A stretch of DNA of 64,000 nucleotides from Candidatus Parcubacteria bacterium (GTDB taxonomy: Bacteria; Patescibacteriota; Minisyncoccia; Phycocordibacterales; UBA2100), in the NCBI GenBank assembly GCA_041168925.1, contig JBEEJY010000019.1:2384-66383 (forward strand). Direction: 5' to 3'. This document shows positions 2,228 to 27,977 of this stretch, one piece after another. The notes below the pieces were generated by a model that saw only the letters and a program-made list of their open reading frames with translations, searched no databases and had not been told where the DNA came from. Position numbers and translations under genes: made by a program. Position 1 is the stretch's first letter. The number at the start of each line of letters is the position of its first letter.

Positions 2228-2286
2228 AGTGCGCGTTTACGATTAACGAAGTCGAAGTGCCGCCGTCCTCAAGACAGACAAAGTGA

Positions 2287-2320
2287 ACAAGACCTCCCCA
2301 TTCGGGGAGGTCTTGTTATC
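2287..2320 (+). terminator. Hairpin terminator after the repeat-protein gene
   Basis: ACAAGACCTCCCC-attc-GGGGAGGTCTTGT followed by a T-containing tract. The U-tract is weak. Confidence 0.45.
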
Positions 2321-2384
2321 AGATTCATATCTTACCTATGGAAGGTGGTCAGTGTAGATAATCCGGACTGTCTGGAGATAACCC

Positions 2385-2419
2385 TACACTTATATGCTCG
2401 GTCGTATAAGATAAGTGTA
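2385..2419. repeat. Palindromic element, copy 1
   Basis: TACACTTAT-N17-ATAAGTGTA, directly abutting the start codon of the regulator gene. Confidence 0.7.
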
Positions 2420-2984
2420 TATGGGCAAATTAGAGGAAACTACGAGACGACGCGCAAAACGGAATCAAATACAGAAAGTAGTTTTAGAGACAATAAAAAT
2501 AGCAGGCATTTTGAGTATTGGCATCGTCGCTCCCAATGTTCTGGGGGCCATGCATAAGCTGGGTCTGATACGGCACGGACGACATGGAGAACTCGTTCGC
2601 AGATCGATCGATCGTATGTATAGTCTTGGCTATTTGAAGCACGTCCGAGGAGGTCTTCAGCTCACTGAGAAAGGCGAGAAGTACCTGCGGACGCTTCAAT
2701 CTAGAATTTTCACTCGAATAAAACCACTCCGATGGGATCATAAATGGCGCATATTAATTTTCGACATTCCCGAACACAACAGGAAGCTCAGGGACCATAT
2801 TCGTCGAACACTGTCGGGGAACGGTTTCATGCAAGTTCAAAAGAGCGTGTGGATATATCCATACGACTGCGAAGACTGGGTCAATCTTTGGAAAGCAGAA
2901 CTCAAAATCGGCAAACAACTTCTTTATCTTATTGTTGATTCTTTGGAAGGGGACTCATCCCTCAAAAGAACCTTTGGCCTGTAG
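2415..2984 (+). CDS. Winged-helix transcriptional regulator, PaaX-like
   Basis: N-terminal wHTH-like region. The C-terminal motif WDHKWRILIFDIPE...LRDHIRRTL..GF..VQKSVWIYP resembles the PaaX C-domain (WDGRWHLV...GF..LQ.GVW). The ORF begins on GTG; an ATG about 6 nt later (MGKLEE) is the likely start. Local GC is about 42% against about 60% elsewhere. Confidence 0.5.
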   Translation: MYMGKLEETTRRRAKRNQIQKVVLETIKIAGILSIGIVAPNVLGAMHKLGLIRHGRHGELVRRSIDRMYSLGYLKHVRGGLQLTEKGEKYLRTLQSRIFTRIKPLRWDHKWRILIFDIPEHNRKLRDHIRRTLSGNGFMQVQKSVWIYPYDCEDWVNLWKAELKIGKQLLYLIVDSLEGDSSLKRTFGL

Positions 2985-2994
2985 TATTTTGTAA

Positions 2995-3029
2995 TACACT
3001 TATGTGCTCGATCGGATAGGATAAGTGTA
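2995..3029. repeat. Palindromic element, copy 2
   Basis: ATACACTTAT-N17-ATAAGTGTAT, 10 nt after the regulator stop codon. It is a direct repeat of copy 1, with 10-bp arms. Confidence 0.7.
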
Positions 3030-3131
3030 TGAGAAGGAATGAGGATAAAAAGGAGGCGAAGAAAGAAGTCGGGGGGGGATGGAAGAAAATGCGGGTAACG
3101 AGTAAGAAGTGCCGTAAGAAGTGAATGTGAA

Positions 3132-4472
3132 TTACAAGCTGCGGGCAGCAATGTCGCGCTTTAACTTCTCGATGAATTTGCCAATCTCTTCCGTCTTCTT
3201 TTGTCCGGTGCGGTTCTCTATCGTCACCGTTTTATCCGCGACCTCCTGATCGCCGACGACGATAAAGTAGGGGATTTTTCCCATTTTCGCATTGCGAATC
3301 CGTTTCCCGAGGCTGTCGCCCTCGAGGAGTTCTACGCGCACTCCGGCTTCTTTGAGTTCTGTCACCGTACTGCGCGCGTACTCCGCGTGCTTGTCGGAAA
3401 CGGGCAACACGGCGACCTGCACGGGCGAGAGCCAGAGCGGGAAAGCGCCTGCGTAGTGTTCGATAAGAAAGGCGATGCTGCGCTCGAAAGTGCCGATAGA
3501 CGAGCGGTGGACGACGAACGCACGATGTTTCTTGCCGTCCTCGCCGATATAGGCGAGGTCGAACCGGTCGGGCATGCAGAAGTCGTACTGCACGGTGAAG
3601 GCGGTATCTTCTTTGCCGTTCACGTTTTTCATCTGTATGTCTATTTTCGGACCGTAGAACGCAGCCTCGTCTTTCGCCTCGAAAAAGTCGCTTCCGCGCT
3701 TCTTCAGCACGCCGCGCAAAAGCTCTTCGCCTTTTTCCCACGCGGTATCGTTTTTATAGTATTTTTCCGCGTTGGAGCGATCTCCGAGCGAAAGCCGGTA
3801 GCGATATTCTTTGCCGTGTTGCAGGCCGAATACTCCCGCGACGTATTCTATGAGATCGAGCGCCTTGTCGGCTTCTTCAGCCGCTTGTCCCTCCGAAGCG
3901 CAAATAATGTGCGCATCCGCGAGGCACATGGATCGCACGCGCTGCAAGCCCATGAGCTCGCCCGATTGCTCGTAGCGATAGAGCTTCGCGAGTTCCGCTA
4001 TTCGCATCGGCAGCTCGCGATAGCTGTGCGGTTTGTCGAGATAGAGCTCGAAGTGGTGCGGGCAGGTCATCGGTCGGAGCATGAATTCTTCGTCGTCGAT
4101 GACGATGGGCGCGTACATCGAATCCTTGTAGTGCGGGTAGTGACCGCTTTTGCGATACAAGTCGAGCTTCGCGATATCGGGCGTATAGACATGCAAGTAA
4201 CCCCGTTTGATTTCTTCATCCACTATGAAGCGTTCAAGCTCGCGGCGTATGACTGACCCGCGCGGAGTCCAGAGGGGGAGTCCTTTGCCTACGGCGTCGG
4301 AGAAGGTGAAGAGATCAAGTTCGCGACCCAACTTCTTGTGGTCGCGTTCATTGGCATCGGCCGCCGGCTCGTTCTTCATCGACCTAATATAGCAAGGAAT
4401 TGCGCTACGTAAAATCGAAGCGGCGGCCGAGAACTTGTCTCGGTCGCCGCGTTTATCCGCTGTAGCGAACAC
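3132..4472 (-). CDS. thrS: Threonyl-tRNA synthetase, catalytic and anticodon-binding core only
   Basis: RDHKKLGRELDLF, class II motifs (YRYEQSGEL...RVRS...ADAHII), C-terminal anticodon-binding domain. The N-terminal TGS and editing domains are absent. The start may instead be the downstream Met (MKNEP...). Confidence 0.9.
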   Translation of the reverse strand: MFATADKRGDRDKFSAAASILRSAIPCYIRSMKNEPAADANERDHKKLGRELDLFTFSDAVGKGLPLWTPRGSVIRRELERFIVDEEIKRGYLHVYTPDIAKLDLYRKSGHYPHYKDSMYAPIVIDDEEFMLRPMTCPHHFELYLDKPHSYRELPMRIAELAKLYRYEQSGELMGLQRVRSMCLADAHIICASEGQAAEEADKALDLIEYVAGVFGLQHGKEYRYRLSLGDRSNAEKYYKNDTAWEKGEELLRGVLKKRGSDFFEAKDEAAFYGPKIDIQMKNVNGKEDTAFTVQYDFCMPDRFDLAYIGEDGKKHRAFVVHRSSIGTFERSIAFLIEHYAGAFPLWLSPVQVAVLPVSDKHAEYARSTVTELKEAGVRVELLEGDSLGKRIRNAKMGKIPYFIVVGDQEVADKTVTIENRTGQKKTEEIGKFIEKLKRDIAARSL

Positions 4473-4892
4473 TTACCCGACGATATCGATGGCGTCGCAG
4501 AACCGCAGGACATTGCGTTTGAGTTGATCCCGCGGAATCTGTTGCTGATGCGCCATCATGAGCAAACTGATCTCCCCGGCAACCCCGGCGACCCAGAGCT
4601 CCAACTCGCTCGGATCCACGGTTTCTTCCATGGCCTTGGCGATCTTATCCCAATATTCGAGATCAAATTGTCTCTGCTTGTCACCGATCACTCCGGTCAC
4701 CATATGGTTGAAATAATCGGCTAGTGCCCGGAGATTGTTCCTGGGCTTGTCCGGGTTCCTGCGGATTTCTGTAGCAGCTCGTGCCGCCAGCTCGCGAAGT
4801 CTCTTCATGTCTCGATCTCCAACGAATGGATCAAACGAGGCGGAGCAGTCAGCCTCTGTAAAGTTTTTACAGTAAAATATCTCTGTTGTCAA
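4473..4892 (-). CDS. Hypothetical protein, co-oriented between dnaE and thrS
   Basis: 139-aa ORF whose stop abuts the thrS start. No recognisable motif. Confidence 0.45.
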   Translation of the reverse strand: MTTEIFYCKNFTEADCSASFDPFVGDRDMKRLRELAARAATEIRRNPDKPRNNLRALADYFNHMVTGVIGDKQRQFDLEYWDKIAKAMEETVDPSELELWVAGVAGEISLLMMAHQQQIPRDQLKRNVLRFCDAIDIVG

Positions 4893-4894
4893 AT

Positions 4895-7800
4895 TTACAA
4901 CGCCTTTGCGCGTTCCACTACGAAACTAGGTTCGCCGTTGCGCTCCGAGATCCTGCCTTTGATCGCGATGCATGCGCCAGGCGCCATGAGTTGTTCATAC
5001 TCTTTAAAAGTGCGCGGGAACGCGATCGCTTCGATGCCGTCGCTGAAATCCACGATCTTGAGAAAACCCATTCGTTCGCCGTTCTTGGTTGTATTGACGC
5101 GTGCCTGCTCGATAAAGCCCGCGATGACCGTCTCGACGCCGCGCATGTTTTCCTTGGCGTGCTTGATCGTCTTTTTCGCGTCGGTGAATTTCGCGCGATG
5201 CTTGTCGAGCGGATGTCCGGAGACGTAGAGGCCGAGCAGCTCTTTCTCCCACGAAAGCAGCACATCGAGCGGCACGGGCTCCGCACGTTTTAGCGTGAGC
5301 TGCACACGCTCGTGCGAACCGAGCGCCGCCTCAGAAAAGAGCGACCCTTGATCTTGCGGCGCACTCAGCTGTTCCCGGTGATACTCAAGAAGAGTCTCAA
5401 GGTTCGCCATGAGCTCTCCGCGGGTAATCTGCATATCATCGAATGCGCCGCACTGGATGAGCGATTCGAGAGATTTCTTGTTGAGATTTTTGTCGGGAAT
5501 GCGCGAGAGAAAATCCGCGATGTTGGAAAACGGGCCGCCTTTTTCCCGTGCCGCGATGATGGAATCCGCGACTCCGGTGCCGAAATTTTTTATCGAATAC
5601 AATCCGAAGCGGATATTCTTTTCGTCGATGACGGTGAAATTGCCCTGACTTTCTTGCACGGAGGGAGGCCATATGGTGATGCCCATCCGCTTGCACTCCC
5701 GCACCACCTCGGCGACTTTCTCCACGTCGCCCGCATCGGCGGTGAGGAGCGCGGCCATGTAATCGACGGCGAAGTTTGCTTTCATATATGCGGTCTTGTA
5801 CGCCAGATTGCCGTAGCTTGCGGCATGCGCTTTGTTGAATCCGTAGGCGGCGAACGTCTCGATCTGTTCCCACAGTGTTTGCACCGCGTCTTTTTTCATG
5901 CCGTTTTTGATGCATCCTTGCGCAAACTTCTCTTTTTGCGCCTTCATCTCGGCTGGAATCTTTTTGCCCATCGCTTTACGGAATTTATCGGCCTCACCCC
6001 ACGAGTAACCGGCGAGCTCCACCGCGATCATCATGACGTCGTCTTGGTAGATGAGGACGCCGTAGGTCGGCTTCAGGATTTTTTCCATGCGCGGATCGAG
6101 GTAGCGCACTCGCGAAGGATTGCGCTTGCGTTCGATGTACTCGGGGATGAAGGCCATCGGTCCGGGTCGATAGAGCGCGACCATCGCGTTTAGATCATGA
6201 ATGACGGTCGGCATCAGCTCTTTGAGGTACGAGGTCATGCCGCCACCCGCCATTTGAAAGACTCCGAGCGTTTCGCCGCGTGCGAGCATCCCGTAGGTCT
6301 TCTTGTCGTCGAGGGGTATTTTTTCGAGATCGATCGTTTTGCCGAGACGCTTTCCAACGCGCTCGACCGAATCCGCGAGGACGGAGAGATTGGTGAGACC
6401 GAGGATATCGAATTTCAAAAGGCCGACGCCGCCGTATTCGTCGGCGATCGAATACATATCGTACTGCGTGATGATGTGATTCCCCTTCGGGTCGATCTGG
6501 ATGGGAGAGAAATCGCTGACTTTGGTCGGCGCGATAACGACACCCGCGGCGTGCACGCCGACATGGCGCGCGTTGCCTTCGATCTTGCGCGCGAGGTCGA
6601 GGACCTCGCGCGCATCCGCGTCCCTCTTGTACACGTCGGCGAGTTCGGGGGCGTCTTTGAGCGCGTTTTCAAGCGTCACCGGAAATCCTTGCTTGCCAAA
6701 GGGGATTAATTTCGCGATCGTATCGCCGAGGCCGTATGGATGCCCAAGCGCTCTGGCGACATCGCGCACAGCGGCGCGCGCCATCATGGTGCCGAAGGTG
6801 CCGATCTGCGCCACTTTGTCGACGCCGTATTTTTCTCTCACGTAGTCGATGAGCTCGTCGCGACGGTTGTCTGCGATGTCCATGTCGATGTCGGGCGCGG
6901 TCGGCCGTTCGGGGTTGAGGAACCGCTCGAAAGGCATTTGGAACGCGATCGGATCAACGGTCGTGATGCCGCAAAGGTACGAAATGAGCGATCCCGCGGC
7001 GGAGCCGCGGGTATTGGTGTAGATCCCGGCCTCTCTCGCATGGCGCAGCAAGTCGGCGACGATAAGAAAGTACGAGGCGTAGCCCTTTTTTGAAATGATC
7101 TCGAGCTCGTAGTCCATGCGCGCGCACAGTTCAGGGGTCTCTCGCATCCCGCGCTCCTTGATGCCGCGTTCGGCGAGAGACCGGAGTTCGCCGTCGTGCG
7201 TCGCGTTCGCAGCGATCGGGAAATAGGGAAGGATCGCCTTTCCGAGGGTCAGTTCGAGGTTGCACGATTGCGCCACCCTCTCGGTGTTTTCCAGGGCCTG
7301 CGGCAGCTGCTCGAAGAGTTCTCGCGCGCGAGCTCGCGAAATGAAAGAAAAATCGTGCGCGCCTTCCTCGAAACCGCGGTTGAGGGTCGAGCCGGTGCGG
7401 ATCTTGTTGACGAGCTCGCGCGCGAGCGCGTCGTCTTGCTTCAGATAATAGGCATCGTGGGCGGCGACGAGCGGGATCCGGAGGCGGTCGGCCACAGATG
7501 CGATCTCGCGCGCTCGCGTTGCGTGCCCATCGATCTCCGGGTGCATGGTGATCTCCGTGAAAAGATCGCTTTGAAAAAGATGCGCGTACCAATCCATCAC
7601 CTCTTCGGCTTTTTGCGCGTTGCCGTCGCGAAGCGCTCGCGCATGTTCGCCGCCAAACGACGGAAGGATGGCGATCAGCCCCTCCCGATGCTCTTCGACG
7701 AGTTCGCGGTCAACGCGCGGACGGTAATAAAAGCCCTCAAGGTGCGAGCGGGAGACGAGCTGCAGCAGATTGCGGTACCCTGCTTCGTTTTTCGCGAGCA

Positions 7801-8077
7801 AAACGAGCCGCGACGAACGGTCATCCACCCGATGCTCTTTGTCGTGTCGCGTGCGCGCCGCGACGAAAAAATCCACCCCGATGATAGGCTTCACCGCGTT
7901 GTCTTTGCACTCTTTATAGAATTCTATGGCACCGTAGAGGTTGCCGCTGTCTGTGAGAGCCAGGGATTTTTGTCCGTCCGTAGCAGCCGCGGCAACAAGA
8001 TCCGGAATTTTCGGCAATGCTTCGAGCAGCGAGTAGTGCGAGTGTGTATGCAAATGGACAAAATCACGCGCACTCAT
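4895..8077 (-). CDS. dnaE: DNA polymerase III alpha subunit
   Basis: N-terminal PHP domain (HLHTHSHYSLLEA) and polymerase core. 1060 aa. Confidence 0.95.
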   Translation of the reverse strand: MSARDFVHLHTHSHYSLLEALPKIPDLVAAAATDGQKSLALTDSGNLYGAIEFYKECKDNAVKPIIGVDFFVAARTRHDKEHRVDDRSSRLVLLAKNEAGYRNLLQLVSRSHLEGFYYRPRVDRELVEEHREGLIAILPSFGGEHARALRDGNAQKAEEVMDWYAHLFQSDLFTEITMHPEIDGHATRAREIASVADRLRIPLVAAHDAYYLKQDDALARELVNKIRTGSTLNRGFEEGAHDFSFISRARARELFEQLPQALENTERVAQSCNLELTLGKAILPYFPIAANATHDGELRSLAERGIKERGMRETPELCARMDYELEIISKKGYASYFLIVADLLRHAREAGIYTNTRGSAAGSLISYLCGITTVDPIAFQMPFERFLNPERPTAPDIDMDIADNRRDELIDYVREKYGVDKVAQIGTFGTMMARAAVRDVARALGHPYGLGDTIAKLIPFGKQGFPVTLENALKDAPELADVYKRDADAREVLDLARKIEGNARHVGVHAAGVVIAPTKVSDFSPIQIDPKGNHIITQYDMYSIADEYGGVGLLKFDILGLTNLSVLADSVERVGKRLGKTIDLEKIPLDDKKTYGMLARGETLGVFQMAGGGMTSYLKELMPTVIHDLNAMVALYRPGPMAFIPEYIERKRNPSRVRYLDPRMEKILKPTYGVLIYQDDVMMIAVELAGYSWGEADKFRKAMGKKIPAEMKAQKEKFAQGCIKNGMKKDAVQTLWEQIETFAAYGFNKAHAASYGNLAYKTAYMKANFAVDYMAALLTADAGDVEKVAEVVRECKRMGITIWPPSVQESQGNFTVIDEKNIRFGLYSIKNFGTGVADSIIAAREKGGPFSNIADFLSRIPDKNLNKKSLESLIQCGAFDDMQITRGELMANLETLLEYHREQLSAPQDQGSLFSEAALGSHERVQLTLKRAEPVPLDVLLSWEKELLGLYVSGHPLDKHRAKFTDAKKTIKHAKENMRGVETVIAGFIEQARVNTTKNGERMGFLKIVDFSDGIEAIAFPRTFKEYEQLMAPGACIAIKGRISERNGEPSFVVERAKAL

Positions 8078-27822: not shown

Positions 27823-27977
27823 ACGTTATGCAATTACCTGATAACCTCACATGTAAAAGACGCTTCACTGTAGCCCTTATTTCATGTTGTAATGATGAAA
27901 ATGTTATCATCAATACACACATGTCTTCCACAACCGAGCAGATTTGTGTATGTGACTTAGAGATCCTCCAAATCAAA

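Follow-up and report, generated by a model that had tools for sequence, protein, structure and literature searches.

The locus and its protein

A 64-kb stretch of DNA from the metagenome-assembled genome (MAG) of an ultra-small bacterium, a Candidatus Parcubacteria, called the window below, carries the gene for a putative regulator of 187 amino acids (aa), in which a predicted winged helix-turn-helix (wHTH) domain is followed by a Cas2-like domain. The gene stands between two copies of a palindrome, an upstream copy (U) next to its start codon and a downstream copy (D) shortly after its stop codon. The features of the locus are listed here in order of position, with lengths in nucleotides (nt) or base pairs (bp), GC content where it was measured, and the strand where one applies.

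2286..2317, no strand: terminator hairpin of the upstream 484-aa gene, with a perfect 14-bp stem and a 4-nt loop
2318..3131, plus strand: extra segment of 814 nt, GC 44.0%, present in the window and in the relatives L205 and L207, not in other close relatives
2353..2361, minus strand: DnaA-box-like 9-mer TGTAGATAA, with one mismatch to TGTGGATAA
2385..2419, plus strand: palindrome U, proposed promoter-embedded operator, defined by the repeat and by family logos
2421..2984, plus strand: regulator, 187 aa, wHTH plus Cas2-like domain (PaaX_M), defined by hidden Markov model (HMM), alignment and AlphaFold model
2995..3029, plus strand: palindrome D, proposed auxiliary operator, with the same half-sites as U
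3029..3124, plus strand: Lys/Arg-rich open reading frame (ORF) of 31 aa, a Joint Genome Institute (JGI) gene call whose ATG begins on the last base of D
3030..3131, no strand: tail separating D from the thrS stop codon, rich in purines and poor in C (A42 G41 T13 C6)
3132..4379, minus strand: convergent thrS, 415 aa as called, at the right edge of the extra segment

The pattern ACACTTAT-N13-21-ATAAGTGT was found exactly twice in the window, at 2386-2418 and 2996-3028, with none expected from 100 shuffles. A repeat search of the window returned the same pair as a 36-nt direct repeat (2385-2420 and 2995-3030, 89% identity). The first-pass annotation, made from these letters alone, had described just such a bracketing of the gene by two palindrome copies, with the second copy 10 nt after the stop, and both statements hold: the regulator ends with TAG at 2982-2984 and D begins at 2995. 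Each copy has perfect 9-bp inverted arms, TACACTTAT and ATAAGTGTA, separated by 17 nt; in U these lie at 2385-2393 and 2411-2419. The 17 nt had been taken as a mere spacer, a description that has to be given up. They hold a conserved central core, CGGTCG at 2399-2404 in U and CGATCG at 3009-3014 in D, together with a -10-like hexamer, which in U is either TAAGAT at 2407-2412, the canonical position in the family, or TATAAG at 2405-2410; D has TAGGAT at 3017-3022. The length of 189 aa, which requires a start at GTG 2415, was also set aside because the conserved N-terminus MGKLE in the family alignment fits ATG 2421 and gives 187 aa. Base composition had been put at about 42% GC against about 60% for the neighbours, which is roughly right: as measured, the gene has 45.2%, the interval 2385-3030 has 43.7% and the window has 57.6%.

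HMM classification, proposed earlier as a check, places residues 104-177 of the protein in PF20803 (PaaX_M, Cas2-like) with 74.3 bits against a Pfam cut-off of 24 (8e-21). The PaaX equivalog model TIGR02277 aligns residues 54-153 to model positions 32-132 and reaches 44.9 bits against a cut-off of 264.55, and the Pfam PaaX N-terminal domain gives nothing at E<=1. No match to PaaX_C was found in Pfam, and the chain ends at residue 187, about 10 residues past PaaX_M. Both Cas2 models score under their curated cut-offs (PF09827, 23.0 against 23.8 bits; TIGR01573, 23.3 against 24.5 bits). In PADLOC the 187-aa protein matched nothing but Cas2 models, and these weakly, and in PHROGs it had no match.

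The AlphaFold model, with a mean predicted local distance difference test (pLDDT) score of 72, shows a wHTH (helices 3-28, 38-46 and 53-68 plus a hairpin at 72-81) followed by a ferredoxin-like beta-alpha-beta-beta-alpha-beta domain. This puts the predicted recognition helix at approximately residues 53-68, the wing at 72-81 and the Cas2-like domain at 104-177. The top Foldseek matches in PDB are E. coli PaaX (8a39), Rv0674 (3kfw) and a Jannaschia protein (3l09), followed by many Cas2 chains; the template modeling (TM) scores for PaaX 8a39 and for 3kfw are low, at 0.31-0.39. Two motifs are invariant in the regulator family, D115 within FDIPE (35 sequences) and YPYDCE at 146-151. D115 aligns with the Asp of the 'YDI' motif in Cas2 SSO1404, in an alignment that is weak (E = 0.7), and the PaaX-like Rv0674, for which a structure has been solved, has no Asp at the position aligned to D115.

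The family comprises 386 clusters at 50% identity (E<=1e-30), and its members are named inconsistently in the databases as PaaX, Cas2 or hypothetical. The regulator is a "mini-PaaX", a predicted winged helix joined to a Cas2-like PaaX_M without the PaaX_C ligand domain, and not a true PaaX. It is neither a phenylacetate regulator nor a CRISPR protein, which corrects the database names. The first-pass label of PaaX-like is right in fold and operator geometry; against PaaX itself stand the missing PaaX_C, the TIGR02277 score and the lack of paa genes nearby.

Palindromes, promoter and half-sites across the family

The layout was followed in 80 homologous Paceibacteria loci from 62 GTDB genomes, whose proteins are 45-56% identical to the query. 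In nearly all 80 loci a palindrome of about 36 nt ends at the start codon and a second copy lies soon after the stop codon. A strict model, requiring a 36-nt element with at least 8 of 9 outer pairs and a C-N4-G core, identified 50 copies of U and 59 of D, while the flanks, about 480 kb in all, yielded 7 elsewhere. A relaxed count of the best palindrome was dropped as noisy, with 17% of control windows positive, and a fixed-frame test was used instead. In this test the 12 nt at -35 to -24 recur after the gene's own stop codon with at least 10 of 12 matches in 58% of loci, compared with 4.3% for cross-paired loci. D lies 0-70 nt from the stop in most loci, and its polarity relative to U is direct in 13, inverted in 10 and tied, being symmetric, in 8. 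The regulator gene falls below its flanks in GC in 70 of 79 loci. The anatomy of the unit and its conservation are firm, as are the promoter geometry, the protein-DNA covariation and the pattern of presence and absence described below.

The promoter geometry was read from an unfiltered logo of the 49 nt upstream of ATG in 79 loci, numbered from the A of ATG. TACA occupies -35 to -32 (81/73/72/65%), C stands at -20 (77%) and G at -15 (78%), and a -10 hexamer of the form T-A-n-n-n-T lies at -12 to -7 (T -12 78%, A -11 89%, T -7 73%), with TGT at -3 to -1 directly before the A of ATG. The U palindrome of the family ends on that A, and the last base of the -10 hexamer precedes it by 7 nt. Since this leaves no space for a Shine-Dalgarno sequence, the arrangement implies that the regulator mRNA would be leaderless. 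At the equivalent positions D is much weaker (T51, A42, T79), so that it has no -10 box, and D is the more perfect palindrome of the two.

Half-site bases vary together with residues of the protein. The mutual information between alignment columns and half-site positions peaks at residues 52-64, the predicted recognition helix, and at residues 74 and 78 in the wing. C at half-site position 5 accompanies R61 in 40 of 45 loci, T5 accompanies S/A61 in 16 of 19, and an aromatic residue 58 (Y/F) is found solely with G4 (10 of 13 G4 loci, 0 of 59 A4 loci). On a tree from which the wHTH residues were left out, the aromatic-58/G4 pairing requires 6 or more independent changes. Such covariation is what one would expect were helix 3 to read the outer half-site in double-stranded DNA. 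The outer half-sites themselves vary by locus (TACACTAAG, TGTACCAAA, TACGTTAAT and others), and paralogs in the same genome always differ at 2 or more of 9 half-site bases in the 12 genomes with at least two comparable half-sites. By this difference, the paralogous units appear to be insulated from one another.

Several loci carry additional palindromes. In L008 the D copy is duplicated (890-925 and 982-1017), and third palindromes, often perfect, lie 70-1000 nt from the gene in L006 (3737-3772), L044 (1004-1039), L020 (2788-2823) and L026 (2896-2931), the one in L006 having a different half-site. L051 contains a U-type palindrome at 148-183 with a -10 box, followed within the next 30 nt by ATA GGG AAA CTT GAG (IGKLE) and then by unrelated sequence; this looks like the remnant of a decayed paralog. 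Elsewhere in the window, TACACACAT-N19-ATTTGTGTA at 27914-27950 has 8 of 9 arm pairs and lies in A+T-rich intergenic DNA followed by ATG-TGA. It is without the family-type core and may be a chance match or a decayed orphan element.

No gene family is common to the neighbourhoods of more than 6 of the 80 loci, which extends to the whole family the earlier remark that no target lies in cis. In 42 of 78 loci (54%) the next gene downstream is convergent, and D as a promoter of the downstream gene was rejected on this count. Annotated genes in the window flanks include thrS, dnaE, RNase HII, L32, NusB/NUDIX, RNase III and SMC. No paa genes are among the annotated window neighbours, several flanking genes being without a Pfam match, and the window has no CRISPR-like tandem array, no explicit search having been made for cas1. 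A metagenome-wide scan for the window palindrome gave at least 120 matching stretches, and 1 of the 120 listed adjoins a regulator homolog. The pattern has 16 specified bases and the database is large, so that mostly chance matches are returned and the scan is silent on the regulon. No description of the family or of the twin-palindrome layout was found in the searchable literature.

Gain and loss of the segment among close relatives

Comparison with related genomes, another of the checks proposed earlier, revealed both carriers (L205 and L207) and empty sites (L209, L210 and L212) of the regulator segment; this comparison covers one locus. The closest orthologs, 64-68% identical, are found in the same place, within the order surface protein, regulator, convergent thrS, dnaE. 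At the empty sites the alignment to the window runs up to 2317. The hairpin at 2286..2317 marks the left edge of the extra segment, and in the empty-site relatives (thrS 76-82% identical) one such terminator hairpin is shared with the convergent thrS, within a gap of 67-96 nt between the surface-protein homolog and thrS. The segment 2318..3131 contains, in order, 67 nt of lead-in, then U, gene and D, and last a purine-rich tail of 102 nt. Its ends thus lie 67 and 102 nt outside the palindromes in the window, and 30 and 27 nt outside in L205. Neither a solo palindrome nor a palindrome remnant was found at the empty sites.

On a thrS+dnaE tree, carrier L205 is nearest to the empty-site relative L212 (86.9% identity), while L205 and the window share 75%. 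The carriers, namely the window, L205 and L207, are not monophyletic, and their scatter on the tree indicates either several gains at one site or several clean losses. The segment of 814 nt is accessory, having come or gone among close relatives, and the palindromes are not its ends. The GC content at third codon positions (GC3) of the regulator is 0.40-0.46 against 0.71-0.72 for its neighbours, in the window and in L205 alike. In the window the regulator (2421-2984) has a GC3 of 0.46 (0.50 at 4-fold sites), compared with 0.71-0.72 (0.80) for thrS and dnaE (3132-8077). The same gap is seen in the L205 ortholog (5481-6044), at a thrS identity of only 80%, and on this ground the low GC was not ascribed to recent horizontal transfer alone.

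A sharp recombination breakpoint lies beside the cassette in L205 and L207. Over more than 1.4 kb, ending where the upstream gene stops (L205 ~5300, L207 ~5830), their DNA is 100% identical, and past that stop the identity is 40-70% through the hairpin, the cassette and thrS. The L207 junction is backed by an independent contig, and both alleles occur in ENA sample ERZ27253378; the comparison also took in L206 and L208. Inspected by eye, the segment junctions show no evident target duplication, and the family loci have no enriched motif right of D. A degenerate 19-nt direct repeat (2244-2262 and 3096-3114, 79% identical; TAACGAAGTCGAAGTGCCG, TAACGAGTAAGAAGTGCCG) encloses the terminator hairpin and the extra segment and may be an old duplication of the target region. 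In L211, another relative, the same thrS-proximal intergenic site, a possible hotspot of small insertions, is occupied by an unrelated ORF for a coiled-coil-like protein of 120 aa (5306-5668) in place of the cassette.

The tail at 3030-3131 has 6 C in 102 nt and, on the thrS strand, forms a C-rich, G-poor 3' region. The asymmetry is family-wide (50-56 loci): C and G make up 12% and 25% of the 40 nt that follow D, but 25% and 13.6% of the 40 nt that precede U. With the asymmetry mirrored outside U and D, transcripts running into the unit would, from whichever side, be rich in C and poor in G. The ORF at 3029..3124 has the canonical leaderless geometry, yet it is not kept in the syntenic orthologs of L205 and L207, and is probably not a gene. 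The thrS gene (3132-4379) is short, with the class-II core and anticodon-binding domains alone on record, and has the same length in more than 100 relatives. The upstream 484-aa protein (773-2227) contains about seven 10-residue repeats YGDNLGY.D. (repeats at 879-1111), has tracts rich in Gly, Pro and Asn as well as a hydrophobic segment at the C-terminus, and has no Pfam match; its homologs in relatives are 48-57% identical.

Proposed mechanism, rival explanations and known systems

These data suggest that the unit is a self-contained, self-repressing gene, with an operator embedded in its promoter and an auxiliary operator downstream, a reading to which we assign a probability of roughly 0.7. 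The regulator would dimerize through its Cas2-like domain, and the dimer would bind the palindrome of about 36 bp, its two winged helices reading outer half-sites (here TACACTTAT) some 26-29 bp apart with the conserved C-N4-G core between them. U would double as the promoter, its left arm lying at about -35 and its -10 hexamer within the right inner arm, and transcription would start at the A of ATG or at most 2 nt from it. A dimer on U would exclude RNA polymerase and so bring about autorepression. The first-pass annotation had offered the regulator's own operator as one of two readings, and this one is well supported by the layout in most of the 80 loci, by the -10 box in U and by the covariation of helix and half-site. 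D, having no promoter role, would be the purer operator; most likely it would raise the local concentration of the repressor or loop to U. It might also block polymerases at the 3' end, where a convergent gene abuts in 54% of loci, so that the downstream roadblock suggested earlier is plausible.

Several observations weigh against this picture. In the window itself, U is 35 nt long with the ATG 2 nt farther from it than is canonical in the family, and the -10 candidate (TAAGAT or TATAAG) is weak and uncalled by a generic sigma-70 scan. The inner arms are palindromic far above chance, at 72% in D compared with 35% for shuffled partners, and the D copies of some relatives form perfect stems of 18-20 bp (-29 to -31 kcal/mol, z = -8.7 to -10). 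This symmetry exceeds the obvious need of a wHTH dimer, and hairpin or cruciform formation, or templated repair, may matter. Either the protein reads beyond the outer arms, or the symmetry of the arms is maintained by hairpin-templated repair. The invariant D115 and YPYDCE hint at a function beyond dimerization, and regulation of itself alone would be biologically odd for a regulator. In addition, the case is comparative throughout: binding, repression and the part played by D are what we infer from patterns among related loci, as is any role of the protein beyond self-regulation.

The other first-pass reading took the palindromes as the ends of an acquired or excisable module, and may be put as a small mobile cassette whose recombination or transposition ends are cut by the Cas2-like domain with its conserved Asp, aligned with the 'YDI' Asp of Cas2, or by a host enzyme. 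Gain or loss of the segment is the part that stood, with the empty sites in close relatives, the carriers that are not monophyletic, the GC3 of 0.46 against 0.71, the several copies per genome in varied contexts and the breakpoint between L205 and L207 all in its favour. As ends, however, the palindromes are very unlikely, since the segment terminates well outside them, no solo copy marks the empty sites, no integrase or transposase is present, the junctions show no target duplication by eye, no motif is enriched right of D, and the promoter features of U, tied to the start codon, would be needless for recombination. A function as RNA hairpins, with D as a terminator or a stabilizer of the mRNA 3' end and U as a 5' structure, fits the position of D in the 3' untranslated region and the strong folding of D in relatives, and the Cas2-like domain may bind RNA; some Cas2 proteins are reported to be RNases. 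The window copies, however, fold weakly (about -13 kcal/mol, z = -2.5 to -3.1), and window D gives a 9-10-bp A+T-rich stem with a large loop (-12.9 kcal/mol) and no T-run, and was not called as an intrinsic terminator in a scan of the window. A T-run follows D in only 6 of 56 copies, and arm mismatches have no G:U bias (GT 17 and AC 20 in the inner arms of D; 8 and 6 in the outer arms). The inner arms in the window are unpaired, yet outer arms, core and spacing are conserved. With transcription starting at ATG, U would lie outside the mRNA, and the covariation of half-site bases with wHTH residues is as for double-stranded DNA recognition. An RNA function is accordingly improbable, and the lack of G:U bias together with the variable polarity of D favours dimer-bound operators over RNA hairpins and recombination sites alike.

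A further explanation makes self-regulation secondary. The unit would be a conflict or replication module, for instance a nuclease toxin of Cas2/VapD type under tight repression, or a site-specific DNA-binding factor with a link to DnaA, and the palindromes would be sites of action as well as operators. The invariant acidic and aromatic motifs of the Cas2-like domain are in keeping with it, as are the many orthogonal paralogs, the gain and loss of the unit among relatives and the persistence of atypical codon usage. Of 81 loci, 17 have DnaA-box-like 9-mers just upstream of U, with at most one mismatch to TTATCCACA, which is some 13 times the background of 0.016 hits per 70 nt; the 9-mers lie mostly on the plus strand at -44 to -90 from ATG (L007, L030, L048, L053, L067 and others). 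The motif is, however, missing from about 80% of loci, no antitoxin, effector or other partner gene is conserved nearby, PADLOC has weak matches to Cas2 models alone and PHROGs none, and the window has no CRISPR array; we regard this explanation as unlikely. It is a long shot that the protein is a free-standing wHTH-Cas2 module, intermediate between Cas2 and PaaX-type regulators, whose Cas2-like domain still acts catalytically or structurally on the palindromes of about 36 bp, these being its action sites too, in semi-autonomous units that move, are exchanged or compete in Paceibacteria. If it were so, recognition of palindromic repeats by a Cas2 relative would be tied to the origin of repeat recognition in CRISPR adaptation.

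In Parcubacteria and the candidate phyla radiation (CPR; Patescibacteria), almost no transcription factors have been studied experimentally, and this regulator family is large, often with several copies per genome. The comparative data provide a promoter model, with a -10 box 7 nt from a leaderless ATG, and a simple recognition code in which Arg61 goes with C5 and aromatic 58 with G4. The apparently insulated repressor-operator pairs, a natural set, could serve as orthogonal parts. Two puzzles accompany the autorepressor reading, namely seemingly self-only regulation despite gain and loss among close relatives, and a low GC3 kept over long divergence.

Among known systems, the closest in mode of action is PaaX. 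At Px, its own promoter, E. coli PaaX binds TGATTC-N27-GAATCA and represses transcription by exclusion of RNA polymerase (PMC9493321). The predicted operator of the window, TACACTTAT-N17-ATAAGTGTA, has inverted half-sites that are widely spaced in the same manner, and PaaX of E. coli and Pseudomonas (8a39, 3l09) has an N-terminal winged helix followed by a Cas2-like middle domain, the order also predicted for the regulator. The differences are substantial. PaaX proteins have about 300-316 aa and an inducer-binding PaaX_C, which responds to phenylacetyl-CoA, whereas the regulator of the window has 187 aa and no such domain. It also keeps the Cas2-type Asp of the 'FDI' motif, which Rv0674 is without; to our knowledge, the E. 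coli PaaX sequence has no Cas2-type Asp either. The putative promoter embedded in the operator, the apparently leaderless mRNA and the second candidate operator past the stop codon are further departures, and no paa genes lie nearby and, in the loci covered, no target was found other than its own gene. A PaaX-like mode of action without PaaX membership is thus the best-supported description that the sequences suggest.

With Cas2 the regulator shares the ferredoxin-like fold, seen in the matches to 5xvn, 8q2n and 5zyf, and the motifs xxFDIxx...RxxxxxxLxxxGFxRxQxSVW. It differs in staying below both Cas2 cut-offs, in its fusion to a wHTH, and in its 35-36-nt palindromes, which stand singly on each side of the gene and are not arrayed with spacers. 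In the lac (O1/O2/O3) and gal (OE/OI) systems, the promoter is overlapped by a primary operator, and another operator follows some hundreds of bp past the start. These auxiliary operators, which act by looping or as roadblocks, offer a functional analogy only, as their proteins belong to families unrelated to the regulator. The auxiliary site proposed here lies past the regulator's own stop codon and is the better palindrome of the pair, and looping between D and U, modelled on lac and gal, is put forward as a proposal.

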